A stretch of DNA of 52,647 nucleotides. Source: Solirubrobacteraceae bacterium. Its GTDB lineage: Bacteria > Actinomycetota > Thermoleophilia > Solirubrobacterales > Solirubrobacteraceae. Below, piece after piece: positions 4,828 through 47,981 of the stretch. The stretch spans positions 1 to 52,647 of the forward strand of contig DASVPU010000052.1 in NCBI GenBank assembly GCA_036389475.1, read 5' to 3'. The first letter of the stretch is position 1. The number at the start of each line of letters is the position of its first letter. The notes beneath the pieces are model-generated. The model was not told the origin of the DNA. It did no database searches and was given only the letters and a program-made list of their open reading frames with translations. The translations under genes were made by a program, and so were the position numbers.

Positions 4828-4895
4828 AGCGCTAGTCGACAGGGTTACGCCGCAACGTCCGCGATCGCCAGGCGCAGCCGTCTTGCGCCCCGCGT

Positions 4896-5885: not shown

Positions 5886-5978
5886 TGATGTGGTCCTTGC
5901 CGTAGCGGTCGAGCAGCGAGCCCGACCGCTCCTCGAACTGCCTGCAGAACGGGCACAGAAAAGTCGATGCGCTCAAGC

Positions 5979-24731: not shown

Positions 24732-26530
24732 CGCAGCGCGCGCTCGCCCTCGCGGGCGCGCTGCTGGCGGCGTCGCTGCTGGCGCCCACGGGCGCAGCGG
24801 CGCACGCGCTGCTCGTCGACACCGTTCCGCAGCGCGGCGCGACCCTGCGGCACGAGCCGCGCCAGGTCGTGCTGCACTTCAGCGAGACTGTCGAGGGCAA
24901 CTTCGGCGCCGTGCGGGTCTTCGACGCCGCGGCCAATCGCGTCGACGACGGGCGCACCATCCACCCGCAGGACAGCGGATCGCGGCTTGCCGTCGGCCTG
25001 AAGCCCGGGCTGCCCGACGGCACGTACGTCGCGACGTACCGCGTCATCTCCGCCGACAGCCACCCGCTCTCCGGCGGCCTCGTGTTCTCCGTCGGCAAGA
25101 CCGGCGCGACAGCCACGCCGATGGTCTCCCAGCTCATCGGCGACAGCACGGCGGGGCCCGTGACGCAAGGCGTCTTCGGGCTCGCTCGTGGGTTGACCTA
25201 CCTCGCGACTGCGCTCGTGCTCGGCGGCTTGGCGTTCCTGCTCGTCGTCTGGCTGCCGGCGCTGCGCGTGGCGGCCGGCGCGGCGGACGAGTGGCAAGAG
25301 GCGTCGCAGGCGTTCGGGCGGCGAGCGCGACGGCTGCTGGTGGGCGGGGCGGGGCTGGGGATCGCCAGCGGCCTCGCGGGCATCGTCCTGCAGGGCGCGA
25401 CCGCGGGCGCGACGAGCGGCTGGGCGGCGCTGAAGCCGTCGGTGCTGGGTGCCGTCCTGGGCACGCGCTTCGGCGAGGTCTGGAGTCTGCGCGTGCTGGC
25501 GTTCGCAGCGCTCGGGTGTGCGCTCGCGCTCGCGCTGCGCGGCCTGCGTCAGCCCGGCGGTGCGGCTGCGCTGCAGCGCGTCGCGCTCGGAGCCGACGGC
25601 CTGGCGGCGCCGGGACTGCCGCGCGGAGAGCTGGCGCTGGCCGCATTGCCGGCGACGCTCATCGCGCTTGCCCCGGCGCTCGCCGGACATGCGAGCGTGC
25701 AGTCGCCGGTGGCGCTGCTGTTCCCGCTCGACGTCATGCACGTGCTCGCGATGAGCGCCTGGATCGGCGGCCTGCTGCTGGCGCTGTTGGCGCTCCCGGC
25801 CGCGACGCGCCGGCTGCAGGGGCCCGACCGCACGCGCCTGCTCGCCGCCGTACTGCTGCGCTTCTCGCCGCTGGCGCTGGGCTGCGTGGTCGTGCTGCTC
25901 GTCACCGGCACGATCCAGGCGATCGAGCACGTCGGCTCGTGGGACGCGCTGCTGCACACCGGCTTCGGGCGGGCGATCCTCGCGAAGATCGTGCTGATCG
26001 CCGTGCTGATCGCGGTCGGTGCCGTCAACCGCCGACGCGTCGTGCCGCGGCTGCGCGCGCTCGCACAGCAGGCCGCGGCGCCCGGCGCGACGGGGCGGTT
26101 GCTGCGCCGAACGCTGCGCGCCGAGGTCGCGCTCGTGCTCGTCGTGCTCGGCGTGACGTCCGCGCTCGTCAGCTATCCGCCGCCTGATTCGCTCGCCGGC
26201 GGACCGTTCAGCGCCAGCACGACGCTCGGCCCGCTGCGCATGGAGACGACCGTCGATCCGGCGCGGGTCGGCCCCAACGAGATACACCTGTACCTGCTCG
26301 ACGCGAAGAACGGGACGCCGTCCAGCGCCACGAAGGAGCTGACGGTCACGCTCGCGCTGCCGGCGAGGAAGATCGGGCCGCTGCCGGCCAAGGCGCGCGA
26401 GGCGGGGCCAGGTCATTACGTGATCGACACCGTCCAGCTCGTCCCGGCCGGCGAGTGGCGCCTGGACGTGACGAGCCGCGTGTCGGAGTTCGACCAGTAC
26501 GAGGGATCGCTCAAGGTCCCGGTGCGATGA
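24728..26530 (+). CDS. copper resistance protein CopC/CopD fusion with a C-terminal soluble domain
   Basis: CopC domain 'AAA|HALLVDTVPQRGATL ... YRVISADSHPLSGGLVFSVG'. A multi-helix CopD domain follows, then a beta-rich tail. Confidence 0.85.
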   Translation: MTQRALALAGALLAASLLAPTGAAAHALLVDTVPQRGATLRHEPRQVVLHFSETVEGNFGAVRVFDAAANRVDDGRTIHPQDSGSRLAVGLKPGLPDGTYVATYRVISADSHPLSGGLVFSVGKTGATATPMVSQLIGDSTAGPVTQGVFGLARGLTYLATALVLGGLAFLLVVWLPALRVAAGAADEWQEASQAFGRRARRLLVGGAGLGIASGLAGIVLQGATAGATSGWAALKPSVLGAVLGTRFGEVWSLRVLAFAALGCALALALRGLRQPGGAAALQRVALGADGLAAPGLPRGELALAALPATLIALAPALAGHASVQSPVALLFPLDVMHVLAMSAWIGGLLLALLALPAATRRLQGPDRTRLLAAVLLRFSPLALGCVVVLLVTGTIQAIEHVGSWDALLHTGFGRAILAKIVLIAVLIAVGAVNRRRVVPRLRALAQQAAAPGATGRLLRRTLRAEVALVLVVLGVTSALVSYPPPDSLAGGPFSASTTLGPLRMETTVDPARVGPNEIHLYLLDAKNGTPSSATKELTVTLALPARKIGPLPAKAREAGPGHYVIDTVQLVPAGEWRLDVTSRVSEFDQYEGSLKVPVR

Positions 26531-27241
26531 ATGAGAGGCATACCAATGAACCGCAGACTCACGATCGCCGCGGCCGCGGCCGCGCTTGTGGCGCCCACCG
26601 CCGCAGCTCAAGCGCACGTAACGCTGCAGCCCGGGCAGGCTCCGGCCGGCGGCTTCGCGCGCCTTGACGTCCGCGTCCCCAACGAGGACCCAGCGAAGGC
26701 GACGACGAAGGTCGTCATCCAGATGCCGCCGGGCTTCGCCGAGGCCGCCTATCAGCCCGTTCCCGGCTGGCGCGTCACGGTTGCCAAGCGCAAGCTCGCG
26801 GTGCCCGTGAAGACCGACAAGGGCGATACGCGGACCGAAGAGGTCTCCAGGCTCACGTTCGCTTCCACCGGAAAGGGGATCGAGCCGGGCCAGTTTCAGG
26901 ACTTCGGCCTGTCGGTCGGCATCCCGGACGAGCCGGTCGGCACGAAGCTCACGTTCAAGGCGCTGCAGACCTACGCGGGCGACAACGTCGTGCGCTGGAT
27001 CGGCGCGCCCGGCAGCGACCATCCGGCGCCGCAGGTCACGCTCGTCGCGGCGCCCGCAACGGCGACGGCGACGGCGACCGCGGCGAAGCCGGCGGCCGGG
27101 GCCACGTCCGAGAAGGAAGACGGTAATGGCAACGGCCTCGCGATCGCGGCGCTGATCGTCGGCGCGCTCGGCCTCCTGACGGGCGGCGCGGCGCTGCTCG
27201 CCGGACGACGTCGAGCGGGCGCGGCCCCCACGGGTGCGTGA
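26531..27241 (+). CDS. YcnI-family (DUF1775) copper-binding protein, membrane anchored
   Basis: 'AQA|HVTLQPGQAPAGGFARLDVRVPNE', 'QTYAGDNVVRWIG' and a C-terminal TM. An alternative ATG lies at 26546. Confidence 0.85.
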   Translation: MRGIPMNRRLTIAAAAAALVAPTAAAQAHVTLQPGQAPAGGFARLDVRVPNEDPAKATTKVVIQMPPGFAEAAYQPVPGWRVTVAKRKLAVPVKTDKGDTRTEEVSRLTFASTGKGIEPGQFQDFGLSVGIPDEPVGTKLTFKALQTYAGDNVVRWIGAPGSDHPAPQVTLVAAPATATATATAAKPAAGATSEKEDGNGNGLAIAALIVGALGLLTGGAALLAGRRRAGAAPTGA

Positions 27242-27920
27242 CCGCGAGCACTCGCGGATGCGCCGGCCACACCGAACGCAGCTGGGGGTGGGGCTGTTTC
27301 CGTTGGGCGCATTCGCGGTGCACCAGTTGCGCTATCAGCTGGCGTTCGGAGCCGACGCGTCGGGCGAGCTCGCTCGCCAGGGCCACGCCTATCTGCACGA
27401 ACTGACCCCGTGGATCGTGTTGTCGGTGGCGGGCGGGCTTGGGGGGCTGATCGTGCGCCTCGCCCGGGCCTGGAGCCGGGCTGAGTCCGACGCCGGGAAG
27501 GGCCGCCGCCTGGCCGCGTTGTGGGCCGTGGCGTCGGCAGGGCTGTTCTCGATCTACGTCGGGCAGGAGCTTCTCGAGGGCCTGTTTGCGACCGGTCATC
27601 CACAGGGGTTGCCGGGGATCCTCGGCGATGGCGGTCTATGGGCGCTGCCGGCGTCAGTGCTCGTCGGCGGCCTGCTGGCGCTGGTGGTACGTGGTGGCCG
27701 CGTGCTCGTCGGGCGCGTTGCGCGCCTGCGCCGCCGGCGGCCGCAGATAGCGATTGCGCGGGCGCCGGCGCTCGTTGCTCGGCGCGATCGCGTGGCGCTC
27801 GCGCGCCGCGCGCCGCTGGCGACGGCGTCTGCCGGTCGCGCGCCGCCCGCCGGGGCGGCCTGGGCCCCACCCGGCACCGGCGGAGAACGGGCTGACCGAT
27901 GCGCGTGCCGCCGCCGCTGA
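27234..27920 (+). CDS. hypothetical membrane protein
   Basis: GTG 27234 overlaps the YcnI stop; an alternative ATG lies at 27258. Four hydrophobic helices, then an Arg-rich tail 'RLRRRRP ... ASAGRAPPA' resembling the tail of 23651-23995. Confidence 0.4.
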   Translation: MRDREHSRMRRPHRTQLGVGLFPLGAFAVHQLRYQLAFGADASGELARQGHAYLHELTPWIVLSVAGGLGGLIVRLARAWSRAESDAGKGRRLAALWAVASAGLFSIYVGQELLEGLFATGHPQGLPGILGDGGLWALPASVLVGGLLALVVRGGRVLVGRVARLRRRRPQIAIARAPALVARRDRVALARRAPLATASAGRAPPAGAAWAPPGTGGERADRCACRRR

Positions 27921-28155
27921 GCCCTCAGCGCCGTTAACGGCCTAGCGCGCCCGGAACGGCCGCGCACGGCCGCCGGGGTGGCGCTCGCTTGAACGACCTT
28001 CTAGCCCTCCGGCGTCGGCTGACCTCGTCAACGCCCGCGCAGTCCATGCGCGGGAGCGGACGTGGCGGCAGTGCTCGGGCTGCCCAGATCCGCGATCGGC
28101 CGGAAACGCGCTGCCCGATCGCGGCGAAGCTAAGCCGAAGCATTGGAGAACTCTC

Positions 28156-29700
28156 ATGACCCAGAACGTCGTGTCTGAACCAGAAACCGTTGCAGTACCC
28201 GATGAACCCGCCGCTGACCCGGCGCAGACGGCCCGCGGCGCCGAGCTGCGGGCGCAGCCCCGGCCGCGATTGTTTCGCGCGGTCTGGCGCTGGCATTTCT
28301 ACGCCGGCCTGCTCGTCATCCCGATCATCGTGATCCTGTCGTTGTCGGGGATCGTCTACCTGTTCAAGCCGCAGATCGACAGCGTCTTCTACGGGCACGT
28401 CCGCGACGTCGACGGTCGCGGCCCGGTGCTCAGCTACGCCAGTCAGCTTGCGGCGGTCAAGGCCGCGCTTCCAGGGGCGAGCGTCACGGGCGTCGCGCCG
28501 GCGCCCAACGCCAAGCGCTCGACGCAGTTCGGCGTCACGACCAAGGAGGGTCGTGACTGGACGGTGTTCGTCGATCCGTACACCGCCAAGGTGCTCGGAC
28601 ATCGCGACAACCAGCATTACCTGCCGGCGATCGCACTGGACGTCCACGGCTCGCTGCTGACCTCACGCTTCATGGACGAGAAGGGCAAGTGGGGCGACCG
28701 CCTGATCGAGCTCGCCACCTCGTGGGCCGTCGTGCTCGTCGTCACCGGCATGTACCTGTGGTGGCCGCGCGGGCGCCGCCGGTCGCTACGTCAGGCGCTG
28801 ACGCCGCGATTGCGGGCGCGTTCCCTACGCGTGCGCTGGCGTGACGTGCACGCCATCACGGGCGTCGCGTTCTCGTTCGTGTTCTTGTTCTTTCTTGTCA
28901 CCGGGCTGGCGTGGAGCGGGGTCTGGGGCCAGAACTACAAGAACATCGCGACGAAGGTCGGCTTGAGCTACCCGCCGGGCACCTTTGACGGGGTGCCATC
29001 AAAGACGGTCGAGGACGTTGTCAAGGGTGGAAAGGCGGCGTGGGCGGCCGGCAGCCTGCCGGTGGCGCAGTCGGTCGGGAGCGGGCGTCCCGGACACACC
29101 GGCCACAACGACCACGCGAGGGTCAAGACGATCCGCTGGAACCCCAAGGACGGCGCTCCGCTGGATGCCGTCGTCGCGCGCGCCAAGCAGATGGGCATGG
29201 CACCCGGAACGACCATCGCGTTCCCGGCTGGCAACACCTCGAGCTACGCCGTCGGCCTCTATCCCGACAACGACGTGGAGCCCAACCAGAGCGCGCTGAA
29301 CGAGCGCTTTGCGTTCGTCGATCAGTACACGGCCAAGCCCGTGGGCGACTTTCGCTACAGCCAGTTCGGCGTGATGGCGCAGGCGACGGACCTGGGAATC
29401 GCGTTGCACGAAGGCCGCCAGTTCGGGCTCGTGAACCAGATCGGGGCGCTGTTGGCGACGCTCGCGCTGCTGCTGTCGTGCGCCAGCGCGATCGTCATGT
29501 GGCGCAAGCGCCGCCCGAAGGGCATCGGCGCGCCACGGCGGGCACCCAACCGCAAGCTCGGTGCCGGGGTCGTCGCGATCACGCTGGGCCTCGGTCTGCT
29601 GTTTCCGTTGCTGGGCATCTCGATCCTGGTGCTGCTGGTCTTCGACTTCGTGATCGTCAAGCACGTGGCGCCGCTCCGGCGAGCACTCGGAGCTGTGTGA
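28156..29700 (+). CDS. PepSY-associated TM helix domain protein (PiuB-like)
   Basis: 'WRWHFYAGLLVIPIIVILSLSGIVYLFKPQID', a periplasmic PepSY-like region, and C-terminal helices 'GLVNQIGALLATLALLLSCASAIVMW'. Confidence 0.8.
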   Translation: MTQNVVSEPETVAVPDEPAADPAQTARGAELRAQPRPRLFRAVWRWHFYAGLLVIPIIVILSLSGIVYLFKPQIDSVFYGHVRDVDGRGPVLSYASQLAAVKAALPGASVTGVAPAPNAKRSTQFGVTTKEGRDWTVFVDPYTAKVLGHRDNQHYLPAIALDVHGSLLTSRFMDEKGKWGDRLIELATSWAVVLVVTGMYLWWPRGRRRSLRQALTPRLRARSLRVRWRDVHAITGVAFSFVFLFFLVTGLAWSGVWGQNYKNIATKVGLSYPPGTFDGVPSKTVEDVVKGGKAAWAAGSLPVAQSVGSGRPGHTGHNDHARVKTIRWNPKDGAPLDAVVARAKQMGMAPGTTIAFPAGNTSSYAVGLYPDNDVEPNQSALNERFAFVDQYTAKPVGDFRYSQFGVMAQATDLGIALHEGRQFGLVNQIGALLATLALLLSCASAIVMWRKRRPKGIGAPRRAPNRKLGAGVVAITLGLGLLFPLLGISILVLLVFDFVIVKHVAPLRRALGAV

Positions 29701-35710: not shown

Positions 35711-35918
35711 ACCACGGAGAGCTGTCCCCCGAGCACGTCCGCCGGCAGCCGCATAAACAGGATCAAAATAAGCAGCGCGGGCCTCCTGTCTATACGTGAG
35801 CATGGATCCGCGGCGCTTAGATCTAGGTCGATCGAACGTCTTGACGTTTAGATCTGATCAGGGCACCCTGAATACTCAAGAAGGGCTGCGCAATGAAGAC
35901 GAGGCGGGGGTAATCACA

Positions 35919-36584
35919 GTGGATGTAAAGCCAGTGCGTACTGTCGTGATCGGCGAGATCCGGGTGTACCGCGAAGGCCTGGCACAGGTTCTCGGCCGCC
36001 AACCAAGCATCGACGTCGTCGGCACCGGATGCACGACCGAGGACGCGTTGGCCTGCGTCGCCGAGCAGCGGCCGGACGTCGTGCTCGTCGATGACGGCCT
36101 GCCGAGTGCCCGGACGCTGATCGGACGGATCAGCGGCGGCGATCACCGCGTGAGCGTGCTCGCGATCAGCGTACCGGAGGAGGAGCGTGCCGTCCTCGCC
36201 TGCGTCGAGGCCGGCGCTGCCGGGTTCCTCCCGCCCCAGGCGTCGCTGGCGGAGGTCATCGCGGCCGTCACGGCGCTTGCGCAGGGCGAGTTTCACTTTC
36301 CGTCGCGGATGACCGCGATGCTCCTCCGGCGCGTCACGCGCCTGTCGTCCCCGAAGGAGCTCGGTGCCGACGGGATGCTGACGCGCCGAGAGCACGAGGT
36401 CGTCGACCTCATCGAGGGAGGACTGTCCAACAAGGAGATCGCGCGGCGCCTGAGCATCAGCATCGCCACCGTGAAGAACCATGTTCACAACATCCTGCAC
36501 AAGCTCGACGTGGGATCTCGTAAAGAAGCTGTGGCGCGCATCCGGGCGCTGCGTACTCCCAGCTACGGGTCCAGCCATTCCTGA
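35919..36584 (+). CDS. LuxR/NarL-family regulator with an atypical receiver domain (no cognate kinase adjacent)
   Basis: C-terminal HTH 'LTRREHEVVDLIEGGLSNKEIARRLSISIATVKNHVHNILHKL'. The receiver has 'VVIGEIR' in place of the acidic DD pair and 'GFLPPQ' in place of the conserved Lys. The longest ORF starts at 35796. Confidence 0.75.
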   Translation: MDVKPVRTVVIGEIRVYREGLAQVLGRQPSIDVVGTGCTTEDALACVAEQRPDVVLVDDGLPSARTLIGRISGGDHRVSVLAISVPEEERAVLACVEAGAAGFLPPQASLAEVIAAVTALAQGEFHFPSRMTAMLLRRVTRLSSPKELGADGMLTRREHEVVDLIEGGLSNKEIARRLSISIATVKNHVHNILHKLDVGSRKEAVARIRALRTPSYGSSHS

Positions 36585-36744
36585 GACTGATATCTACTCG
36601 AGCTGGTCCACCTGCGTGACTGATATAGATCACCGCGATCCACGTCTACCCGCCGATCCAAGATAGATCCTCGATCCATTTTCACCGCAACGCGGTGGAG
36701 TGATACTGCGTTGGTCCTGACACTCCAACACGAGGAGACGAGCG
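36585..36744 (+). promoter_or_regulatory. repeat-rich, comparatively AT-rich promoter/operator region of the peptide operon
   Basis: GACTGATAT occurs at 36585 and 36618. GATCCA occurs at 36637, 36655 and 36673, an 18-nt period. Palindrome CACCGC-AAC-GCGGTG at 36683-36697. A possible -35 TTTTCA (36679) and -10 GATACT (36701). GAGGAG RBS at 36732. Confidence 0.4.
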
Positions 36745-37035
36745 ATGGCAAACGGAGATCTCGAGCAGCGGGTCGCGGCGCTGGAAGCCCAAGGCGGCCA
36801 GAGCGGCGGAGGCGCAGGCGGAGGCGGCGACGCAGGCCAGGTCCAAGCGTTCCTACAGGGCGCGCTGGCGGCGTATGCCGCGTCCCAGCAGCCTCAGGCC
36901 CAGGGGCTGCAGGCGGGCGGCGGGGCCGGCGGCGAACAAGGCCTCTTCGGGTGGAACCCGACGAAGTACGACTCGATCTTCTGGTGCAAGAGTCGATTCA
37001 TGTGCAACCCGCAGTCGGTTTCCTGCCTCTGCTAG
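36745..37035 (+). CDS. candidate RiPP (lanthipeptide-type) precursor peptide
   Basis: 96 aa, with GAGGAG 7 nt upstream. Gly/Gln/Ala-rich leader. The last ~30 aa, 'LFGWNPTKYDSIFWCKSRFMCNPQSVSCLC', hold all 4 Cys and 5 of the 7 Ser/Thr. It sits directly upstream of the kinase/LanC genes. Confidence 0.7.
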   Translation: MANGDLEQRVAALEAQGGQSGGGAGGGGDAGQVQAFLQGALAAYAASQQPQAQGLQAGGGAGGEQGLFGWNPTKYDSIFWCKSRFMCNPQSVSCLC

Positions 37036-37048
37036 CACGGCGACTGAC

Positions 37049-37137
37049 GACGACGGCCCATCAGGCACACGCAAGGCCAGCCTGTTCCGGCGGGAGGCGC
37101 CCCGTGGGGCGCCACCAGCCGGACGGGGGCCGTCGTC
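37049..37137 (+). promoter_or_regulatory. nested stem-loop between the precursor and biosynthetic genes (possible attenuator / processing site)
   Basis: Outer stem GACGACGGCCC (37049-37059) pairs with GGGCCGTCGTC (37127-37137). Inner hairpin GGCGCCCC (37096-37103) pairs with GGGGCGCC (37106-37113). No U-tract. Confidence 0.4.
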
Positions 37138-37152
37138 GCCGCCACAGACCAG

Positions 37153-38289
37153 ATGCAACAGATCGCACACCGCAAGCGTGCGGCTCTCATGAGCGAGAGC
37201 GATGTCGTCGACTATCTTCTCGAACGCAACCTGATCGACGCGGCTGCGATCGTCGACGGCGATCTGCGGCTCATCGATGCCTCGCGACGCAACACGAACT
37301 TCCGCGTGGTGCGTGAGCGGGCCTCCTCATACCTGCTCAAGCAGGGCGCAGGTCGTGACCCGTTCGTATCGACTGCGCGCGAGGCGTTCGTCTACGCGCT
37401 GCTCGCCGACGCCGGTGGGAAGGCGATTGCGCGGCTCCTGCCCCGGGTCTACGACTTCGACGCCGATCGCGAGCTGCTCATCATCGAGCTCTTCGAAGGT
37501 GCCGACGACCTGCGCGCCTACCACCACCGCCGGGGGCGCTTCCCGACATCGGTCGCGGCGCAGCTCGGCAAAGCACTCGCGCAGCTGCACGCGCTACCCG
37601 CTCGCGCCGGCGCAACGATGGGCGGACATGCGCTCGACGCTCCCGAGCCGGCCGGGTTGTTCCTGCACCGCCCGGGCCTTCCGGTCCTGCACGACCTCAG
37701 CGGCGCCGGCACGGACATCGTGCGCCTGATCCAGCGCTCGGACGGCGTCTTCGACGTGCTCGAGAGCATGCGCCGGCAGTGGCGGCGAGACCGCTTCATC
37801 CACCACGACATGCGCTGGGACAACGTCCTTGTCACTCGAACTGCGAGCGGTAAGCCGGCGTTGAAGCTCATCGACTGGGAAGCCGCGGGCCTGGGGGATC
37901 CGGGTTGGGACCTCGGTGGGATCCTCGGCGACTACCTCGCCTGCTGGATCACCTCCATCCCGCTCACCGGCCACGACACGCCCGACCGTTATCTGGGTCT
38001 GGCTCGCTACCCGCTGAAAGCGATTCAACCGGCGCTGGGCGCGTTGTGGAACGCCTACGTAGCCCAGGCGGGGCTGACGGCGAGCGAGTGCCGCGAGCTG
38101 CTGATCGCGACGGCGAGATACACGGGGCTGAAGCTCATGGAGATGGCACTTGAACACGTCCAGCATCAGCCAGAGTGCAACATGACGGCGGTTACGCTCG
38201 TCCAGGTCGGAGTCAACATCGTGACCAGTCCCGAGCATGCAGCTCGCGTGCTGCTATCGCTCGCCGCGCCGTCTGAGGCTTTGCAGTGA
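37153..38289 (+). CDS. protein-kinase-like phosphotransferase (APH/MtnK-type), putative peptide Ser/Thr kinase
   Basis: 'FIHHDMRWDNVLV' (HxDxxxxN catalytic loop) and 'LKLIDWEAAGLGDPGWDL' (metal-binding Asp). N-lobe 'RNTNFRVVRERASSYLLKQG'. An alternative ATG lies at 37189. Confidence 0.75.
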   Translation: MQQIAHRKRAALMSESDVVDYLLERNLIDAAAIVDGDLRLIDASRRNTNFRVVRERASSYLLKQGAGRDPFVSTAREAFVYALLADAGGKAIARLLPRVYDFDADRELLIIELFEGADDLRAYHHRRGRFPTSVAAQLGKALAQLHALPARAGATMGGHALDAPEPAGLFLHRPGLPVLHDLSGAGTDIVRLIQRSDGVFDVLESMRRQWRRDRFIHHDMRWDNVLVTRTASGKPALKLIDWEAAGLGDPGWDLGGILGDYLACWITSIPLTGHDTPDRYLGLARYPLKAIQPALGALWNAYVAQAGLTASECRELLIATARYTGLKLMEMALEHVQHQPECNMTAVTLVQVGVNIVTSPEHAARVLLSLAAPSEALQ

Positions 38290-40709
38290 GTGAACATCTT
38301 CGTCAGGTACAGCAGGTCGTGGGGGCCGTCGAGATCACCTCACCCACGTCGTTCACCTGGTTTGGTGCGCCGTCGGGGCAGCTGCCGGCGCGAGTCAGGC
38401 GCGAGATCGATGCGGCAGTTGCGCGATCTCACCTGTTGTTCACCCTTCGCAATCACCTCTACAAGGACTTCTACTGTGTCGGGTTCGCTTCACGCATGGC
38501 GCCGGAGGTGGGCGAGGCGTCGGTTTCATGCCAGGAGACCCAGCTGACGCGCGAGCTGGCGCGCGCAAACCGTGGCTGCGGCTACTGGCAGCCGGGGTGG
38601 GTCGTGACGGGCCGCCACGACGAGATGGTGGTCGTACGCCGCGACGGGCTGGAGCTCTGGATCGCGACCGAGGACTGCAGGCCCTGCGCGGGCGGATCGA
38701 TCGCACCTGCGTCCGACGTCGCGCTACGGCTGCCAAACGGCTCGTGCGAGCTCTCGCCCGGCTACTACTCGGCGATGAGCGACGAAGCACTGGACCCAGA
38801 GGGGAGGGGGGGCACGCTCGTTCGCCTGTACTGGAACGTCGCGCCGGCGTCGGCCGCATGCCTCATGATCGCGATCACCTCCCACCTGAATGCTGCGCGC
38901 CTGCCGTTCAGGCTGAAGATCCTCAGCGACGCGCTCTCCTACGGGCGTTGTGACACCGCCGTGCTGTACATGCTCAAGGACGATCTCAAGGCAGGTGCTC
39001 GCGAGCTGGCGCGGGCGTATGCCGAGGCGCTTGACGGCCTGCGGCCGGGGACCCCCGCATTCACGAAGGAGATCGCGCATGGAGTGAGCCTGGCGGAGGA
39101 TGCCGGCGACGGTGAGAGCTTCGGGCAGCACCGCTGCGAGCTGCTCGCCGAGGGACTGATCCGCGCGTCCGAGCACGGTCACCGCAAGCTCGAGCAGCGC
39201 ATGGCGAGCGTGGAGGGGACGTTCGCGCAGGCGGGCGTGGACTTTGAGCTCCCCTATCTGCGGCACGGCTCGGCGGATGACTACGACCTCGTGCTTGCGC
39301 CACAGCCGGCGGTGCGACGCGCGCGAGGAGCGACTGATCGCTCGCCCGACGCCGCCGCGTTCCTCGCGATCGCCACTCAGATCGGGGAGCGGCTCGTCGC
39401 CGAAGCGGTATGGGACGAGGATCGCTGCAACTGGCTGGCGCTGCTTCCCCACGCGATCACGACGCGGCAGATCGGCCTCTCCTATGGAGCCCTGAACCAC
39501 GAGCTCTACGACGGCACGAGCGGGATCGCGCTGTACCTCGCCCAGCTGCACTGCCTCACCGGCGACGAAGCACTGCGCCGGACGGCGCTCGGAGCCGCGC
39601 GGCAGGCGCTACGCGTCGCCGCGCAGGACAGGTTAACGATCGGCTTGTACACCGGGACGCTCGGCATCGCCTTCGCCTCGGCCTGCGTCGGGATGCTGCT
39701 GTCAGAGGACTCGCTCGCGCCGCTCGCGGCCCGCCTCGTGCGGCGAATCTCCGACGGCGAAGGCGAGATCGCTGGCTTCGACTTCCTCTCCGGGCGCGCC
39801 GGCGCGATCAGCGGCCTGCTGATCCTGCACGAGGCGCTCGGGGATCGGCTGTTCCTCGCGCTTGCCAGACAGCTCGGCGACGACCTGGTTGCCAGCGCCG
39901 AGCGGACGCCGCGGGGCTGGTCATGGGTCTCTGACATGGAAGGTGGCAACCACCCCAACCTCACGGGTCTGTCGCACGGTGCCGCCGGTGCCGGACACGC
40001 CCTGCTCGAGCTCTTCGACGCAACCGGTGACACGCTGTATCGTGCGGGCGCCGAAGGGGCCTACCGCTACGAGCGCTCCTGGTTCTACGACGACGAGCGC
40101 AACTGGCCCGACCTGCGCGAGCAGCCGCGCCGCAGCACGCAGCCTCGTCCTGGCACCTGCCGGGTCCAGTGGTGCCACGGCGCGCCGGGGATTGCGCTGG
40201 CGAGGATCCACGCCTATGAGGTCCTCGGCGACCCCGTCTACCGCGACGAAGCGCTGACGGCGCTGGCGACGACCGAGTCACAGACCGAGATGGCGCTGCG
40301 CCGCTCGACGTTGAGCTACTGCCTGTGCCACGGCCTCGGAGGCAACGCCGATGTCCTCCTGGAGGGTCGGCGACTACGTTCGCCAAACGCGGCCAACCGC
40401 GCCAACGGCGCCAACGTTGGCGGCTCGTTGCCGGTGCGGATCGGCGCCGCCGGCATCGGCGCGCACGCCGAGAGCGGGATGCCGTGGCCGTGCGGGATCC
40501 CGGTACCTGGGCGGGAGACGCCGGGGCTGATGCTCGGACTGGCTGGCATCGGCCACTTCTACATGCGCCTGGCGTTCCCCGAGGCGATCCCGTCGATGCT
40601 GCTGCCGCGCCGCGCGGACGTCGCCCGTTTCGCGGCGCTGGCAGGACCGCGCGACCGCATCGCAGTCGCCGATCACGATCCCCGGCTGGAAGAGAGGAGC
40701 CCGTCATGA
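38286..40709 (+). CDS. fusion protein: N-terminal HopA1-like (putative phospho-Ser/Thr lyase) domain + C-terminal LanC-type zinc cyclase
   Basis: GTGA overlap with the kinase stop. LanC motifs 'GLSHGAAGAGHAL', 'VQWCHGAPGIALA' and 'YCLCHGLGGNAD'. The N-domain carries 'LVRLYWNV', 'LPFRLKIL', 'YGRCDTAVLYM' and 'ESFGQHRCE'. Confidence 0.75.
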   Translation: MSEHLRQVQQVVGAVEITSPTSFTWFGAPSGQLPARVRREIDAAVARSHLLFTLRNHLYKDFYCVGFASRMAPEVGEASVSCQETQLTRELARANRGCGYWQPGWVVTGRHDEMVVVRRDGLELWIATEDCRPCAGGSIAPASDVALRLPNGSCELSPGYYSAMSDEALDPEGRGGTLVRLYWNVAPASAACLMIAITSHLNAARLPFRLKILSDALSYGRCDTAVLYMLKDDLKAGARELARAYAEALDGLRPGTPAFTKEIAHGVSLAEDAGDGESFGQHRCELLAEGLIRASEHGHRKLEQRMASVEGTFAQAGVDFELPYLRHGSADDYDLVLAPQPAVRRARGATDRSPDAAAFLAIATQIGERLVAEAVWDEDRCNWLALLPHAITTRQIGLSYGALNHELYDGTSGIALYLAQLHCLTGDEALRRTALGAARQALRVAAQDRLTIGLYTGTLGIAFASACVGMLLSEDSLAPLAARLVRRISDGEGEIAGFDFLSGRAGAISGLLILHEALGDRLFLALARQLGDDLVASAERTPRGWSWVSDMEGGNHPNLTGLSHGAAGAGHALLELFDATGDTLYRAGAEGAYRYERSWFYDDERNWPDLREQPRRSTQPRPGTCRVQWCHGAPGIALARIHAYEVLGDPVYRDEALTALATTESQTEMALRRSTLSYCLCHGLGGNADVLLEGRRLRSPNAANRANGANVGGSLPVRIGAAGIGAHAESGMPWPCGIPVPGRETPGLMLGLAGIGHFYMRLAFPEAIPSMLLPRRADVARFAALAGPRDRIAVADHDPRLEERSPS

Positions 40710-41809
40710 CAGATCGGTGTCGAAGCTGCGGGCGTCACGCACCACCCGTCGTCTGCTCGATCATCCCGTCCCACGTGCTCGCCGAGCTCAGCACTGGCGG
40801 AGGCGACGGCGGGCAGGACGCTGCAATCAAGACGCTCGCCGCCTCGTCCAGCGTCCGCGGGCAGCGCACGGTCACGGCGAGGCTGCTGCGCCAGCTCGAC
40901 ACCGGGATCGCCGGCCTGCTCCCTGCCGCCGCAGGAAACCACGAGCGCCAGACGATCTATGACGCGCAAGGCGAGACGCGCCTGCCTGGAGCCAAGGTCC
41001 GCGGCGAATCAGACGATCCGGCCCGCGATGCGATTGCGAACGAGGCCTTCGACGGCGCCGAGCGTAGCTACAGCTTCTTCAAGGACGTCTTCGGCCGCAA
41101 CAGCATCGACGGCCAGGGCGTGAAGCTCATCTCCTCCGTGCACTACGGCCAAGCCTTCGACAACGCGCTGTGGAACGGCACGCAGATGATCTACGGCGAC
41201 GGGAGCGGAGCGATCATCGCGCAGGGCCAGCTCACGAAGGCGATCGACGTCATCGGCCACGAGCTCACCCACGGCATCACCCAGACGACCGCCGGACTGG
41301 AGTACCGCAAGCAGTCCGGAGCGCTGAACGAGTCGTTCTCGGACGTCTTCGGCTCGCTCGTCAAGCAGCGTGTCCGGGGGGAGACGGCGGAGCAGGCCGA
41401 TTGGCTTATCGGCGAGCGGCTGCTGGGGAGCGCTCTGAAGGGAAAGGCACTCCGGTCATTGAAGGACCCGGGCCATGCGTTTGACTTCGATCGCCAGCCG
41501 GCACACGTGAACGACTACGTCGACCTGCCCGACGACAACGACCCCCGCAACGACAACGGCGGGGTGCACATCAACTCCGGCATCCCCAACCACGCCTTCT
41601 ACCTCGTGGCGACGACCCTCGGCGGGAACGCCTGGGAGAAGCCGGGGCAGATCTGGTTTAAGACGCTGACCGAGCGACTGCGACCGAAATCGGACTTCCT
41701 CGAGGCTGCCAACGCGACCGTTGACGTCGCGGGCAAGCTGTTCGGCGACGGCGGCTTGGAGCAGCGCGCGGTGCGCGCCGCATGGAGGGTCGTGGGCGTC
41801 TTGCGATGA
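40706..41809 (+). CDS. M4 (thermolysin-family) metallopeptidase of the signal-less protealysin-like type
   Basis: ATGA overlap with the LanC gene. 'VIGHELTHGITQ' (HExxH), 'GALNESFSDVFG' and 'GGVHINSGIPNHAFYL'. N-terminal 'VVCSIIPSHVLAEL' resembles the propeptide motif. No signal peptide. Confidence 0.9.
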   Translation: MTDRCRSCGRHAPPVVCSIIPSHVLAELSTGGGDGGQDAAIKTLAASSSVRGQRTVTARLLRQLDTGIAGLLPAAAGNHERQTIYDAQGETRLPGAKVRGESDDPARDAIANEAFDGAERSYSFFKDVFGRNSIDGQGVKLISSVHYGQAFDNALWNGTQMIYGDGSGAIIAQGQLTKAIDVIGHELTHGITQTTAGLEYRKQSGALNESFSDVFGSLVKQRVRGETAEQADWLIGERLLGSALKGKALRSLKDPGHAFDFDRQPAHVNDYVDLPDDNDPRNDNGGVHINSGIPNHAFYLVATTLGGNAWEKPGQIWFKTLTERLRPKSDFLEAANATVDVAGKLFGDGGLEQRAVRAAWRVVGVLR

Positions 41810-42129
41810 GGCTGACGGTGGTCCAGGGCGGCGGCATCGCCGGGCTCCTGCGGACGGTGTCGGCCGATTCGGCGTCGCTGGAGCCGGCGCAGGCCGATGC
41901 CCTCGAGGCCATGATCGAGGATGCCGGCCTGTTCGACCTGCCCGAGCGGCTGGGACCCGCCTCCTCGCACCCCGACGCGTTCGACTATGAGCTGACCGTC
42001 GAGGACGGCGAGCGGCGCAAGACGATCCGCGCCAGCCAGGACGCGCTGCCCGAGCAGGTGCGCGCGCTGATCCAGTGGCTGCAGTCGGTGCCGGGCCACG
42101 AGGAGCGAGTCCATGCGCCGGGCACCTAG
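41806..42129 (+). CDS. emfourin-like small protein (putative proteinaceous inhibitor of the adjacent M4 peptidase)
   Basis: ATGA overlap with the peptidase stop. 107 aa with 'MRLTVVQGGGIAGLLRTV ... PDAFDYELTVEDGERRKTIRA ... LPEQVRALIQWL'. Confidence 0.55.
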   Translation: MRLTVVQGGGIAGLLRTVSADSASLEPAQADALEAMIEDAGLFDLPERLGPASSHPDAFDYELTVEDGERRKTIRASQDALPEQVRALIQWLQSVPGHEERVHAPGT

Positions 42130-42154
42130 CGCTCAGTCCTTGCGGGGCGGACCG

Positions 42155-44110
42155 CTAGGATCGCTCCTGACGACCGCCGAGGTGCTCGGCGAGGAACTGC
42201 TCGGCAGCAGCGATGAAGCGCAGCTGGCTGTGCTCACCGACAAGGCTGTGGCCCTCGTCATCGAAGCGCAGGTACGTGTGCGGCACGCCGCTCTGCGTCA
42301 TCGCCTCCACCAGCGCCTCGGACTCCGCAACGCTCACGCGCGGGTCGTGGGCGCCATGCGCGAGGAGCACGGGGATTCGGATGTCGGCGGCATGAGCGAG
42401 CGGCGAGCGTGCCCAGAGGAGTTCCGCGTCGTGGCGCGGGTCGCCGATGCGGCGGCGTAGCTGCGGCGCGAGGCCCGCCCAGTACGGCGGCGTGCGCTCG
42501 ATCAGCGTCACGAGGTTCGTCGGGCCGGCGAGGGAGATCGCGCAGCGGAACACGTCTGGAGTGAACGCGGCGGCGGCGAGGGCCGCGTACCCGCCGTAGG
42601 ATGCGCCCGAGATCCCGATCCGAGCTCCGTCGGCGTGGCCCTCGTCGATGGCCCAGGCGACCGCGTCCACGAGATCGTCCTGCATCTTGGCACCCCATTC
42701 GCGGTCGCCGGCGGCCAGAAACCGCCTCCCGTAGCCGGTGGAGCCGCGGAAGTTGACCTGGATGCAGAGGTAGCCGCGGTTGGCGAGCCACTGCACCTCC
42801 GGATCGAACCCCCAACGATCACGGCCATAGGGACCGCCGTGGACGCTGACCACCGCCGGCCACCGTGCCCGTCCGAACGTGGGAAACGTCACGTAGCCGT
42901 GGACGAGCAAGCCGTCACGCGCGCGAAAGCTGAAGGGCTCCATCCGCGCCAGGCGGTAGCGGCTCAGCGCGGGGCGTGTCTGGAAGAGCAGCTCTGGCTT
43001 GCGCGAGCGCCGGTCGTAGAGGTGGTAGACCGGGGGACGGTCGTCGGCGTTCAGCCGCACGATCCAGCGCTGATCGGCATCGTCGCGGCTCGTCAGGTGC
43101 GGATCGCCTCGGCCGAGCTCGCCATGGGCCGCGAGATCCGGCTCGAGCGCGCGGTCGACGACGAGGTAGCGCAGCCGCTCGCCGTCGACCGTGGCCAGCT
43201 GCGGCTCGTGCGTATGCGGATCGATCCGCACGCCGGAGATGTCGAACGACGGATGCCCCGCGATCTCGCGCGCGCTGCCGTCGTTCAGATTGAGGCGGTG
43301 CAGGCGCGCCGTGTCTTCGCCGAAGGTGCAGACGGCGAACAGCTCGCGGCCGTCATCGCTGAAGCCGAAGGCAGAGGTGGCGAACGCATCGTCGGCGTCC
43401 GCGACGAGGATCGTGCGCCACGTGCCCGGGCCGGCGTCGCGCACCCAGATCTCAAGGCCGCCGTCCGCCCGCGGGTGGATCCCCCCGCGCGGGCGCAGCT
43501 GATGATCGACCACCCACGAGGGAAACCAGGAGAACCCCGGGTTCTTCTCGGCCAGCTCGATCTCACCGGTCGCGATCCGGATCCTGTAGGCGTCGTGCAG
43601 CTCGGGGTCGTCGCGATTGAGGCCCACGAGCGCCTCCCCGGGCACGGCCGGCTCGAGCCCCAGCAAGCGCGCCTGGACACCATCGAAGGGCGTCAGGTCG
43701 CGATCCTCGCCCGTCTGCACGTCGACGGCGTGCAGATGCCAGTTCTCGTCGCCGTCGCGGTCCTGGACGTACAGCAGATGGCGGCCGTCGTGTGCCCACG
43801 CGTGGCCCATGATGCTGCGCCGGGACTCGCGCGTCAGCGGTCGCGCTCGCGTCGAGTCCAGATCGCCAACCCAGATGTTGGAGATTCCGCCGCTGGGCGC
43901 GAGGTACGCGATGCGTCGACCGTCGGGCGACAGCGCCGGCGCTTCTCGCTGGGGATTGTCGAAGAGCACGCTGCGCGCAATCAACCCGGCCTCCGCTTTC
44001 GCTGGCGCACCACGTTTCGACGGGCCGGCGTCAGCCATCGTCCCGCTGCCGTTCACGGCCCCGGTCAGCGCGGGCTCGCGGGCATGTCCGGCGCACCCTG
44101 TACAGAACAT
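42155..44110 (-). CDS. S9 family serine peptidase (prolyl oligopeptidase / dipeptidyl peptidase type)
   Basis: N-terminal beta-propeller repeats ('LSPDGRRIAYL', 'WAHDGRHLLY'). Catalytic 'GISGASYGGYAALAAAAF'. C-terminal 'HGAHDPRV' and 'DEGHS'. The start may be ATG 44038. Confidence 0.85.
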   Translation of the reverse strand: MFCTGCAGHAREPALTGAVNGSGTMADAGPSKRGAPAKAEAGLIARSVLFDNPQREAPALSPDGRRIAYLAPSGGISNIWVGDLDSTRARPLTRESRRSIMGHAWAHDGRHLLYVQDRDGDENWHLHAVDVQTGEDRDLTPFDGVQARLLGLEPAVPGEALVGLNRDDPELHDAYRIRIATGEIELAEKNPGFSWFPSWVVDHQLRPRGGIHPRADGGLEIWVRDAGPGTWRTILVADADDAFATSAFGFSDDGRELFAVCTFGEDTARLHRLNLNDGSAREIAGHPSFDISGVRIDPHTHEPQLATVDGERLRYLVVDRALEPDLAAHGELGRGDPHLTSRDDADQRWIVRLNADDRPPVYHLYDRRSRKPELLFQTRPALSRYRLARMEPFSFRARDGLLVHGYVTFPTFGRARWPAVVSVHGGPYGRDRWGFDPEVQWLANRGYLCIQVNFRGSTGYGRRFLAAGDREWGAKMQDDLVDAVAWAIDEGHADGARIGISGASYGGYAALAAAAFTPDVFRCAISLAGPTNLVTLIERTPPYWAGLAPQLRRRIGDPRHDAELLWARSPLAHAADIRIPVLLAHGAHDPRVSVAESEALVEAMTQSGVPHTYLRFDDEGHSLVGEHSQLRFIAAAEQFLAEHLGGRQERS

Positions 44111-45485: not shown

Positions 45486-47981
45486 CTACTCGGCCTTGTG
45501 CGCCTGACTGGCCCGCCCCAGCTGCGGGACCTTGATCGCGTACTTGGACGGCGCCAGCTGGACCGTGGGATTGTCGATGTGACCCAGGCGGTCGATCAGC
45601 TTGATCCACTGCGACGGCTTGAGCACCGATGAGGCGATCTGCCCGGCCTTCGAGTTCAGGCTGAACTGCGGCCGGAAGCCGACGTGGATGTGGTCGGCGT
45701 GGTCGGCCATCGCGAGTGTGTTGTCAGCGCCCTCGTAGGTCATCAGGGTGATGATCTGCGCGGGCTTCATCGTCCCCTGCAGCGTCAGCAACCTGCGAAC
45801 CGCGATGTCCGTGATCGAGCCCGCACCCTGGTTGCCCAGGATCGGGATCCCGTTGATCTTGGCGATGTCCACCGCGTTACCCGACGAGTGCGCCGAGACG
45901 TTGCCCGACGAGGTGTAGTAGCCGTGGCCACACTGCAGCGACGTGACGGTCGGCTTCAGACCCGAGGACGCGAGGAACTCGAGCGTCGCGAGCACGCGGC
46001 GGTCGACGATCCCCGACTCGATGTCACGACGTCCGCAAGAGTAGGTCTCGATCCGAGGGTTAGCCAGGACGCGCTGGATCAGGTTGTCCTTGCTCTCGAG
46101 CAGGATCTGCCCGATCGTCGCGGTCTGGGCGTTCTCGCCGAGCAACGGGTTCTTGCCCTGCGCCCGGTAGATCGCGGTCGACTCGAGCAGCTTCCAGCCG
46201 TCGAGGATCGGCTTCGGATCGATCCGCGGAGCTCCGCGCCCGGCGGGCCGGATCTCGAACAGCATGTGCGGAGCGAGCGTCGGCGACGTCTTGCCGATCC
46301 GTCCGAGGATCGTGCCCGCGATGACGCGGCGACCGGGGACCAGACGCTTGAGCACGACGTCGTGGCGGTTGAGGCCGTAGACCCCGGTGAAGTACGACTT
46401 GACGTTGCCCGTCAGCGCCGACTCGGATTCGAGGATCTGCTTGCGCCCGCCGCTGTCCAGCGCCCTCGGGCGCGACGGGTTGGCGAACAGCCGCTCCTTG
46501 GCGACGGCCGTCGTCTCCTGCACCGCCTGAGCGGGCGCCTGGACGGCCTGCTTGACGGCCTTGACCGGGTCCTTGACCACCTTCTTGACTGCCGTGCTGG
46601 AGGACGAGCTGGCCGGCGCCGTGGGCGCCGGGTCGGCCTTCGGGAGCGCGAGCTCCTTGGCGATCGACTCCTTCGTCTGCGTCTTGCTCTTGGGCACCGG
46701 CACCTGCTTGGCGACGGTCTTCAGACCGGCGTAGGTGTAGGTGTTGCCGTAGGCGTCGCGCAGCATCACGAAGTTGCCAAGGCGCGTGTTGCGCCCGACC
46801 TTGACGATCTTGCCGTCCTGGACGGCCACGACCGCAGACTTCGCGTTGGCGAAGATGTTGATGCCGCGCCGAGCGCTCTTGCCCTCGACCGGCATCGCCG
46901 CGTTCTGGCCGCGAGCGAAGCGACGTGTCGCGTCGCGCTCGGAGATGTCGTCGGCGTACTTCGACGTCGCGTGGACCGGGAAGATGCCCTGCGTCAGCCC
47001 GCTGATCGAGCCGATGAGATCCGCTGGCATGCCGCCGATGAACCGTGCGCGCATGAGCACCGAGTCGACGTACCAATCGGCGTGGTTGTAGGCGTAGATC
47101 GCCTTGCGCAGATCCTGATCGGCGCCCGCCGCCTTGAGATAGCGCGCCGCGGCGAAGATTGCGTCGACCGGGTTGTAGGGATCCTTCTTGCCATCGGAAT
47201 TGGCGTCCACCGCCCACGTCTTCCAGCTCGACGGGATGAACTGCATCCAGCCCATCGCCCCGGCGGAGCTGACGTTGAGGTTGCGGCCATAGTCGGTCTC
47301 GATCTCGTTGATCGCCGCCAGGACCTCCCAGCGGATGCCGTACTGGATGCCCGCCGCCTGATAGATCGACAGCAAGAAGGCCGGGATCCGGAACTTGTTG
47401 ATGAAGAAGTTCGGAACGCCGACGGGAACCGCGCCGGGGAGAGCCAGGGACATCGTCGGGTTCGACAGCGTCGGGATGCCGTTGGAGTGGCGCAGGTCGG
47501 TGGCCTTCGGCCGGGCGGTCTCGGGCGCCCGCGCGGCGGTGTCCAGAAGGCGTCCGGCCGTATCGACCCCCTTCTCGACGTTGGCCTTGGCCTTCTTCGA
47601 CTTCTTGACGACCGTCTTGTCGACCGGGGCCTGGAGCGGGACGGTTGGCTGCTCTGCGACCGGGGCGGCAGGCGCCGCAGCCGGTACGGTGGGCTTGATC
47701 GACAGCGACGGTCCGTTGCTGGGGGGCGCGTTGACCGGCGTGATCTCCTTGATGCTGAGGATCGGCAGCGCCCCGATGTTGGGCAGCCTGATCTGATCAA
47801 GGGGGAGGTCTGCACCCACATCGATCGTGATGGTCTTCTTGATCTTTCCGAGCAGCTGGAGTTCGAACGTGCGCTTGATAGCGCTCGCGGGGCCAGCAAA
47901 TGTCCCGAATCCGACGGCTATGCCGCCGCTCGCGACCATAGCCATGAGCAGCCTACGCTTGTGGTGCATGTGTTCCTGCAT
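45486..47981 (-). CDS. secreted multidomain peptidoglycan hydrolase (lytic transglycosylase + M23 peptidase + LAS/M15-like zinc peptidase)
   Basis: Signal peptide 'LLMAMVASGGIAVGFGTFAGPASA'. SLT domain 'AINEIETDYGRN ... GAMGWMQFIPSSW'. M23 domain 'VVAVQDGKIVKVG ... APHMLFEIRPAG'. C-terminal 'SAHSSGNAVDIA ... ADHADHIHVGF'. Confidence 0.8.
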   Translation of the reverse strand: MQEHMHHKRRLLMAMVASGGIAVGFGTFAGPASAIKRTFELQLLGKIKKTITIDVGADLPLDQIRLPNIGALPILSIKEITPVNAPPSNGPSLSIKPTVPAAAPAAPVAEQPTVPLQAPVDKTVVKKSKKAKANVEKGVDTAGRLLDTAARAPETARPKATDLRHSNGIPTLSNPTMSLALPGAVPVGVPNFFINKFRIPAFLLSIYQAAGIQYGIRWEVLAAINEIETDYGRNLNVSSAGAMGWMQFIPSSWKTWAVDANSDGKKDPYNPVDAIFAAARYLKAAGADQDLRKAIYAYNHADWYVDSVLMRARFIGGMPADLIGSISGLTQGIFPVHATSKYADDISERDATRRFARGQNAAMPVEGKSARRGINIFANAKSAVVAVQDGKIVKVGRNTRLGNFVMLRDAYGNTYTYAGLKTVAKQVPVPKSKTQTKESIAKELALPKADPAPTAPASSSSSTAVKKVVKDPVKAVKQAVQAPAQAVQETTAVAKERLFANPSRPRALDSGGRKQILESESALTGNVKSYFTGVYGLNRHDVVLKRLVPGRRVIAGTILGRIGKTSPTLAPHMLFEIRPAGRGAPRIDPKPILDGWKLLESTAIYRAQGKNPLLGENAQTATIGQILLESKDNLIQRVLANPRIETYSCGRRDIESGIVDRRVLATLEFLASSGLKPTVTSLQCGHGYYTSSGNVSAHSSGNAVDIAKINGIPILGNQGAGSITDIAVRRLLTLQGTMKPAQIITLMTYEGADNTLAMADHADHIHVGFRPQFSLNSKAGQIASSVLKPSQWIKLIDRLGHIDNPTVQLAPSKYAIKVPQLGRASQAHKAE

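Follow-up and report, generated by a model that had tools for sequence, protein, structure and literature searches.

Protealysin of Serratia proteamaculans is an M4 metallopeptidase with a short propeptide and no signal peptide. It is not secreted, and the gene for its protein inhibitor, emfourin, follows immediately downstream in the same operon (pln-m4in; PMC9505478; precursor structure 2VQX). Emfourin binds protealysin in a 1:1 complex at the active site, its deletion causes FtsZ and viability to drop, and the two proteins were proposed to form a toxin/immunity-like pair (PMC9505478). Here, a 52,647-nucleotide (nt) stretch of Solirubrobacteraceae DNA (contig DASVPU010000052.1, forward strand; the whole stretch is referred to as the window) is described, in which the genes for a protealysin-like M4 peptidase and an Emfourin-family protein form the 3' end of a predicted lanthipeptide operon.

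Protealysin-like proteases build up as inactive precursors that are activated after cell lysis, and they autoprocess at RS|VI, just N-terminal of a PPL motif (PMC6778150). They prefer hydrophobic residues at P1' and P2' and small or polar residues at P1, and the specificity of protealysin is broad (PMC6778150). Leader removal is the least predictable step in the maturation of lanthipeptides, a group of peptides that are made by the ribosome and modified after translation (RiPPs), and in practice an obstacle to the production of genome-mined peptides. Known lanthipeptide proteases are LanP, LanT, FlaP and AplP, and a survey has the two thermolysin Pfam domains only in its list of 120 domains seen in predicted lanthipeptide cluster regions (PMC8960859). 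An operon-encoded M4 peptidase would add a protease family to these four characterised types. What protealysin-like proteases and emfourin do physiologically is debated, the proposals being host invasion, interbacterial antagonism and FtsZ/RecA regulation; through conserved genetic linkage with a defined peptide substrate, this role would become directly testable. Staphopain, another bacterial protease, has a co-operonic cytoplasmic inhibitor, staphostatin, which is thought to guard the producer cytoplasm from premature activity.

The window pair resembles pln-m4in in that a short-propeptide M4 gene without signal peptide is followed immediately by an Emfourin-family gene. Unlike the Serratia pair, it is located at the 3' end of a lanthipeptide operon, with an overlap into the synthetase gene, its M4 protein has no PLN_propep match, and identity to the Serratia proteins is low. 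As with LanP-type S8 leader peptidases, the protease is encoded directly with the modification enzymes, and relatives in the window precursor family (L144/L145, L146) carry an S8 gene where the window has the M4 gene; unlike LanP, the window protease is a zinc M4 enzyme with a separately encoded protein inhibitor. A small inhibitor gene adjoining its protease gene is also the arrangement of staphostatin/staphopain, but the protease and inhibitor families differ and the window genes sit in a peptide natural-product operon. In the literature searched, neither emfourin nor protealysin-like or M4 peptidases were found paired with lanthipeptides or other RiPPs; the terms met once, through a chance match of word starts. 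Nor was a protease with its protein inhibitor found in any RiPP operon there, so that the lack of precedent claimed in an earlier reading of the DNA letters (the sequence-only reading) stands for that literature. With a protein inhibitor encoded in its operon, a RiPP pathway would have a new means of timing maturation or protecting the producer.

Operon layout

The G+C content of the window is about 70%. The genes of the locus, with the features on which the assignments are based, are as follows.

35796-36584, + strand: LuxR/NarL-type response regulator, probable operon regulator (Pfam GerE and Response_reg)
36745-37035, + strand: lanthipeptide precursor, 96 amino acids (aa) (open reading frame (ORF) with Shine-Dalgarno sequence; 37 homologues)
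37153-38289, + strand: APH-fold Ser/Thr kinase, LanK-like (Pfam APH; 3' end overlaps the synthetase gene)
38286-40709, + strand: HopA1-type phospho-Ser/Thr lyase (LanY-like) fused to a zinc LanC cyclase, 807 aa, referred to as the synthetase (Pfam HopA1 and LANC_like)
40706-41809, + strand: protealysin-like M4 zinc metallopeptidase, 367 aa, proposed leader peptidase (Pfam, 2VQX alignment, motifs)
41806-42129, + strand: Emfourin-family protein (M4 protease inhibitor family), 107 aa (Pfam PF20242)
42155-44110, - strand: S9 (prolyl-oligopeptidase family) serine peptidase, convergent, role uncertain (Pfam Peptidase_S9)

The six + strand genes between 35796 and 42129 are best explained as one lanthipeptide unit, within which five genes follow each other in the order precursor, APH-type kinase, HopA1/LanC fusion, M4 and emfourin, with the M4/emfourin pair last. 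The DNA was read at the synthetase/M4 junction (...ccgtcATGAcag... at 40706-40709) and at the M4/emfourin junction (...ttgcgATGAggc... at 41806-41809), and both are 4-nt ATGA stop/start overlaps. The sequence-only reading had described the same two overlaps, of the M4 start with the LanC stop and of the 107-aa ORF with the M4 stop. Translational coupling of M4 and emfourin to the lanthipeptide genes is supported, and the operon genes are presumably co-transcribed. The precursor gene is preceded by a GGAG-type ribosome-binding site. A promoter and terminator scan of 36400-42400 detected nothing, as expected for DNA of 70% G+C. M4 is the only protease gene found in the operon, and the roughly 8 kb to each side of it contain no exporter gene. 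The S9 gene ends 25 nt from the end of the emfourin gene; its product shows NCBIfam similarity below threshold to Dpp5 and the Atxe2 lasso-peptide isopeptidase (83 vs 400 bits).

Identity of the M4 peptidase

The 367-aa ORF matches Pfam Peptidase_M4 (PF01447, 99 bits) and Peptidase_M4_C (PF02868, 184 bits). The catalytic and helical domains, the HExxH motif (HELTH, residues 185-189, nt 41258-41272), the third zinc ligand in NExxSD (NESFSD, residues 208-213, nt 41327-41344) and the catalytic His (GGVHINSG at residue 285) are all present and aligned with 2VQX. This structure, the Serratia proteamaculans protealysin precursor, is the nearest solved one (expect value (E) 5e-84), whereas thermolysin and its relatives reach only about 1e-49. 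The 2VQX alignment starts at residue 18, inside the propeptide, where SIIPSHVL of the window protein pairs with SVIPPYML.

About 80 residues N-terminal of the catalytic domain form a short propeptide, in which Pfam detects no FTP/PepSY propeptide domain; PLN_propep was undetected even at E<=1. The N-terminus, MTDRCRSCGRHAPPVVCSIIPSHVLAELSTGGGDGG, contains no signal-peptide-like hydrophobic run on direct reading. The same N-terminal layout, with the Cys-rich start C.(I/V)(V/I)PP.V(L/I), was found in 17 M4 relatives. At the position of the PPL motif the window protein reads P-S-H-V-L, and the counterpart of the RS|VI autoprocessing site is CS|II. With these motifs, the short propeptide and 2VQX as best match, the assignment as protealysin-like, previously proposed from HExxH, NESFSD and the lack of a signal peptide, is supported. 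A longer start in the same frame (GTG 40325) was discarded because the lengths (350-376 aa) and N-termini of homologues fit the start at 40706.

Identity of the Emfourin-family protein

The ORF at 41806-42129 matches the Pfam Emfourin profile PF20242 with 73 bits (gathering cut-off 27; E 2.6e-20) over profile positions 3-91 of 91. This match is far beyond chance, and it supports both the earlier suggestion that the small protein is emfourin-like and its placement as a bona fide member of the family. The alternative start ATG 41782 in the same frame was rejected, since homologues begin with M(R/K)(L/V)(T/S)V, which fits 41806. An emfourin homologue lies directly 3' of the M4 gene in L081-L084, L087, L142 and L143 and in the P0013, P0017 and P0018 contigs.

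A single-sequence AlphaFold2 model of the window emfourin (predicted local distance difference test, pLDDT, 81) has the topology beta-beta-alpha-beta-beta-alpha-beta. Foldseek of this model against the PDB gave no match at E<=0.001, the best being Mago-like (E 0.011, template modelling score (TM) 0.43). Sequence and 6-sequence-profile searches of the PDB returned nothing relevant, and the plasmid collection held no match to the window emfourin. By analogy with the Serratia pair, the window emfourin would be expected to inhibit the window M4.

Kinase, synthetase and lanthipeptide class

The fusion protein matches Pfam HopA1 (128 bits) and LANC_like (178 bits). Its WCHG (629) and CHG (681) motifs are invariant in the homologue alignment. 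Class V lanthipeptides are dehydrated by an APH kinase and a HopA1 lyase (PMC9486802). Like the class V LanK/LanY pairs (cacaoidin CaoK/CaoY, lexapeptide LxmK/LxmY; PMC9486802), the window system combines an APH-fold kinase with a HopA1-type lyase for Ser/Thr dehydration. Unlike in characterised class V systems, a canonical zinc LanC cyclase is joined to the lyase, and the kinase, a relative of LxmK, scores far under the cut-off of the NCBIfam LxmK equivalog model (105 vs 315 bits). In contrast to class V, neither a cysteine-decarboxylase gene for aminovinyl-cysteine (AviCys) nor a reductase gene is present in the window operon. Since a fused full LANC_like domain with zinc-ligand motifs is not a class V feature, the system is regarded as a hybrid of class V-type dehydration and LanC-type cyclisation.

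The unit of APH kinase and HopA1-LanC fusion is itself very widespread, with 540 tblastn-confirmed stretches in one-per-species genomes. It occurs in Chloroflexota, Acidobacteriota, Bacteroidota, Planctomycetota, Proteobacteria and Cyanobacteria, and also in one Nitrososphaeraceae archaeal metagenome-assembled genome (MAG; L001).

Precursor and proposed cleavage junction

The C-terminal part of the 96-aa precursor reads GGEQG-LFGWNPTKYDSIFWCKSRFMCNPQSVSCLC. A split into a 66-aa Gly/Gln-rich leader and the 30-aa core LFGWNPTKYDSIFWCKSRFMCNPQSVSCLC is proposed, with the cut before nt 36943; if the core begins at L67, the scissile bond would be G66|L67. The proposed core contains four Cys and five Ser/Thr, and its sequence did not occur in the literature searched.

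Relatives of the precursor were detectable in 37 cases. Among 15 close relatives that were read, all but one contain the motif [Q/G]G[I/L]FGW.PT.YDS..WC.SRFMCNPQS.SCLC, the deviations within this set being one FGF for FGW and one RAMC for RFMC. At the junction, these 15 precursors all have G at P1, either I or L at P1' and F at P2'. The invariant G|[L/I]F junction is well consistent with the published specificity of protealysin-like proteases, and cleavage at this site is predicted on that ground.

In a precursor sub-family (P0206, P0210, P0212, P0218 and L146 at about 5500-5701) the core is extended, ...AFLSIFGCGGGGGW(S/T)PT.YDS..., and contains a fifth Cys. The copy in L146, on a Deinococcus plasmid, is unannotated in RefSeq.

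Conservation of the five-gene layout

All close relatives of the cassette are metagenomic. Those in which the pair follows the synthetase are listed below.

L081, L082, L083: precursor - APH - HopA1/LanC - M4 - emfourin
L084 (and near-identical L087): the same five genes, with LuxR upstream and S9 downstream
L142: contig begins inside the synthetase gene, followed by M4 - emfourin - S9

Between linked lineages the synthetases are 51-59% identical, the M4 proteins 60-68%, the emfourins 35-54% and the precursors 67-77%. The flanks of the cassette vary, with an ABC transporter in L081, BTAD and IniB in L082, and LuxR and S9 in the window and L084. A LuxR homologue is also located 5' of the precursor in L084, L087 and L086. 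S9 homologues (60% identical) occupy the same position in L084, L087, L094 and L142; the gene was not seen in L081-L083. The synthetase/M4 overlap is again ATGA in L084 and measures 17 nt in L083, and M4 and emfourin are separated by 10-13 nt in L083, L084 and L142. In L082 (5071-6524) the M4 ORF runs about 67 codons beyond the homologous end and a 52-aa ORF precedes emfourin, which could reflect a frameshift, an assembly error or a genuine extension.

Because the arrangement recurs in five further diverged lineages (L081, L082, L083, L084/L087 and L142), the adjacency is not fortuitous, and this part of the sequence-only reading was borne out. Its description of the pair as hard-wired into the operon was too strong: the gene order is kept in these five lineages, but cassettes without the pair and pairs without the cassette both exist (see below). 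In a mirror-tree test the pairwise identities of five linked lineages were star-like, which makes mirror-tree correlations uninformative.

Proposed mechanism

The association is real and more than chance adjacency; it would represent a RiPP operon whose dedicated protease is of a new family and comes with a protein inhibitor. The simplest interpretation has a protealysin/emfourin module recruited to the 3' end of a lanthipeptide operon. As judged from sequence, the M4 peptidase is on balance probably, though by no means securely, a dedicated leader peptidase, with emfourin acting as its co-translated brake in the cytoplasm.

In the proposed sequence of events, the LuxR-type regulator would turn on the five-gene operon. 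The APH-type kinase would phosphorylate Ser/Thr residues in the core of the 96-aa precursor, the HopA1-type lyase domain would eliminate the phosphate, and the fused zinc LanC domain would close thioether rings with the four core Cys. M4 would be made as a cytoplasmic zymogen and would cut at the invariant ...Q-G|L/I-F-G-W... junction, which offers a small P1 and hydrophobic P1'/P2' residues. Translationally coupled emfourin would bind mature M4 1:1, thereby shielding cell proteins from attack, and would delay leader removal until the complex is relieved, for example in late growth, upon release or upon lysis. Maturation might conceivably be gated in this manner and triggered by export or by some release signal.

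Separability of cassette and pair

Several observations weigh against a dedicated leader peptidase. The first concern cassettes that lack the pair. Distant relatives were collected by a fusion-enzyme profile scan of one genome per GTDB species, which yielded 80 loci (L001-L080) from many phyla. The kinase is located directly 5' of the synthetase in nearly all of them, and a match to M4 or emfourin within 10 kb was found in none. Nearer to the window, a LytB/IspH homologue overlaps the synthetase stop of L085 (synthetase 56% identical) and no M4 gene is present there; in L086 (64% identical) an unrelated gene starts 134 nt past the synthetase, just before the contig end. The same G|[L/I]FGW junction is retained in both loci, neither of which has an M4 gene next to the cassette, and the conserved junction may reflect core function instead of a cleavage site. 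The LytB/IspH-family gene of L085 (11976-13007; Pfam, 271 bits) is in its own right an unusual RiPP operon partner.

Pairs without the cassette were also found. Relatives of the window M4 number in the thousands, and the lanthipeptide-linked M4s are among the very best of the 8000 matches listed. A metagenome contig scan with the window M4 left 55 loci, one of which (L087) contains lanthipeptide genes; none of the 29 loci with an M4 <=54% identical and at least 1 kb of upstream sequence does. By neighbour-joining of 149 M4 sequences, a phylogeny whose internal branches are short and carry no bootstrap values, every M4 linked to lanthipeptide genes is placed in a single terminal subclade of about 20 sequences. 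This placement and the high rank of the linked M4s among the matches speak for the dedicated-peptidase reading. The subclade also includes the P0018 contig, which consists of a LuxR-type regulator, M4 and emfourin without lanthipeptide genes, and L088, where the 363 nt upstream of the pair give no synthetase match and end in an unidentified reading frame. Further members are L143, where a patatin-like gene lies downstream and only 180 nt are available upstream, and the P0013 contig, in which a partial upstream gene overlaps the M4 start. In the plasmid collection M4 relatives are <=51% identical, and two that were inspected (H11, H16) are not beside RiPP genes.

The mixed subclade and these exceptions indicate that the lanthipeptide cassette and the protease/inhibitor pair are separable modules, which stayed joined through deep divergence in one clade. 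A single fusion event could be the origin of all linked lineages. Moreover, protealysin/emfourin is known to be self-sufficient as a two-gene module, and efficient processing seems hard to reconcile with a tight inhibitor at equimolar level.

One subclade member, the P0017 contig (JGI 3300041967), carries M4 - emfourin - a 451-aa YcaO-domain gene with overlapping junctions, a hint that the module accompanies another RiPP enzyme class.

A possible protease/immunity unit without a role in maturation

These points are met by a rival explanation that is a real but clearly lesser possibility. The pair would be an autonomous protealysin-type protease/immunity unit that is co-transcribed with the lanthipeptide genes and does not act on the precursor, the leader being removed by other proteases. 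It would have landed 3' of the cassette in one ancestor, possibly sharing the LuxR regulator, and would keep a cellular or antagonistic role of its own, the nature of which is still debated. The stand-alone operon and proposed toxin/immunity-like function of the Serratia pair (PMC9505478) agree with this, as do the LuxR-M4-emfourin contig P0018 and, in the sequence available, L088. The retained junctions of L085 and L086 fit it equally, and so does the absence of the pair from the 80 distant loci and of lanthipeptide genes from the 29 loci with diverged M4s; one ancestral fusion and vertical descent could account for all linked contigs.

Such a passenger is argued against by the survival of the five-gene order through 40-50% amino-acid divergence of the synthetase despite changing flanks, and by gene junctions that overlap or sit a few nucleotides apart. 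L084 in addition contains a second, PLN_propep-positive M4/emfourin pair (4625-6014), about 6 kb upstream of the operon pair and 46% (M4) and 27% (emfourin) identical to the window proteins. Because this second pair is diverged, the operon copy looks like a distinct paralogue, and not simply like the housekeeping pair of the genome. The remaining argument is that, in two distant phyla, this position is taken by an S8 protease and a small protein.

The slot after the synthetase

L144/L145 (P0207, a Mycobacteriales MAG) contain, in order, BTAD, precursor, APH, HopA1/LanC (47% identical), S8, an 85-aa protein and an M24 peptidase. On L146, the Deinococcus sp. QL22 plasmid NZ_CP097150.1, the precursor is of the 'FLSIFGC' variant and is accompanied by a phosphotransferase, a LanC-family protein (48% identical), an S8 peptidase and a hypothetical protein of 84 aa. 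The S8 subtilase and small protein span 14158-15865 in L144 (also present in L145) and 9414-11144 in L146; the S8 enzymes have no signal peptide and are 46% identical to each other. The two small partners of about 85 aa, encoded at 15608-15865 in L144 and 10890-11144 in L146, are 27% identical (E 2e-10) and have no Pfam match. A relationship of these partners to emfourin was considered and rejected (hhalign profile-profile probability 0.6%). In P0207, the precursor linked to S8, the G[I/L]FGW junction is missing and the sequence is ...AAPAGFTSYDS....

Since S8 and a small protein recur in two distant members of the precursor family, the slot looks like a position for a cytoplasmic-looking protease and a small partner, filled from differing families; S8 and the protein of about 85 aa may form a further pair of this kind. 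In 30 distant GTDB loci, crude ORF calls gave a first downstream ORF that was never a protease and mostly lacked a Pfam match, so the protease slot is a trait of the window precursor family and not of the whole enzyme family. The sister operons hint that protease-partner pairs may be a more general design.

A wider version of the dedicated-peptidase reading is doubtful, if attractive. In it, the M4/emfourin subclade would be a maturation module, portable and gated by its inhibitor, with recruitment by different RiPP pathways (lanthipeptide, YcaO), and S8 with its partner of about 85 aa would be the analogous device in sister operons. Ring-containing precursors would then be natural substrates of protealysin-like proteases, and emfourin would be a timing device that keeps the peptide leader-bound and inactive in the producer until release.

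Possible secondary roles of M4 on the peptide

It is improbable that M4 acts on the peptide in some capacity other than that of primary site-specific leader peptidase, with emfourin tuning its activity: degradation of the released Gly/Gln/Ala-rich leader, trimming after another enzyme such as S9, or destruction of intracellular active peptide as self-protection would agree with a leader rich in Ala/Leu bonds that an M4 enzyme can cut, with the broad specificity of protealysin (PMC6778150) and with the S9 peptidase kept beside the pair in the window, L084/L087, L094 and L142, but S9 was not seen in L081-L083, the junction motif suits a single M4 cut well, and nothing in the analysis points to self-protection. 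Class III lanthipeptides undergo stepwise maturation by general metallo- and prolyl peptidases (AplP, FlaP), which speaks for this alternative as well.

Other genes of the window

A copper-handling-type cluster unrelated to the lanthipeptide locus lies at 24728-29700 (+ strand) and consists of genes for a CopC/CopD fusion, a DUF1775 protein and a PepSY_TM protein in a row. On the other side of the operon, 1.4 kb past the S9 gene, an 831-aa cell-wall hydrolase with SLT lytic transglycosylase and M23 peptidase domains is encoded at 45486-47981 (- strand).

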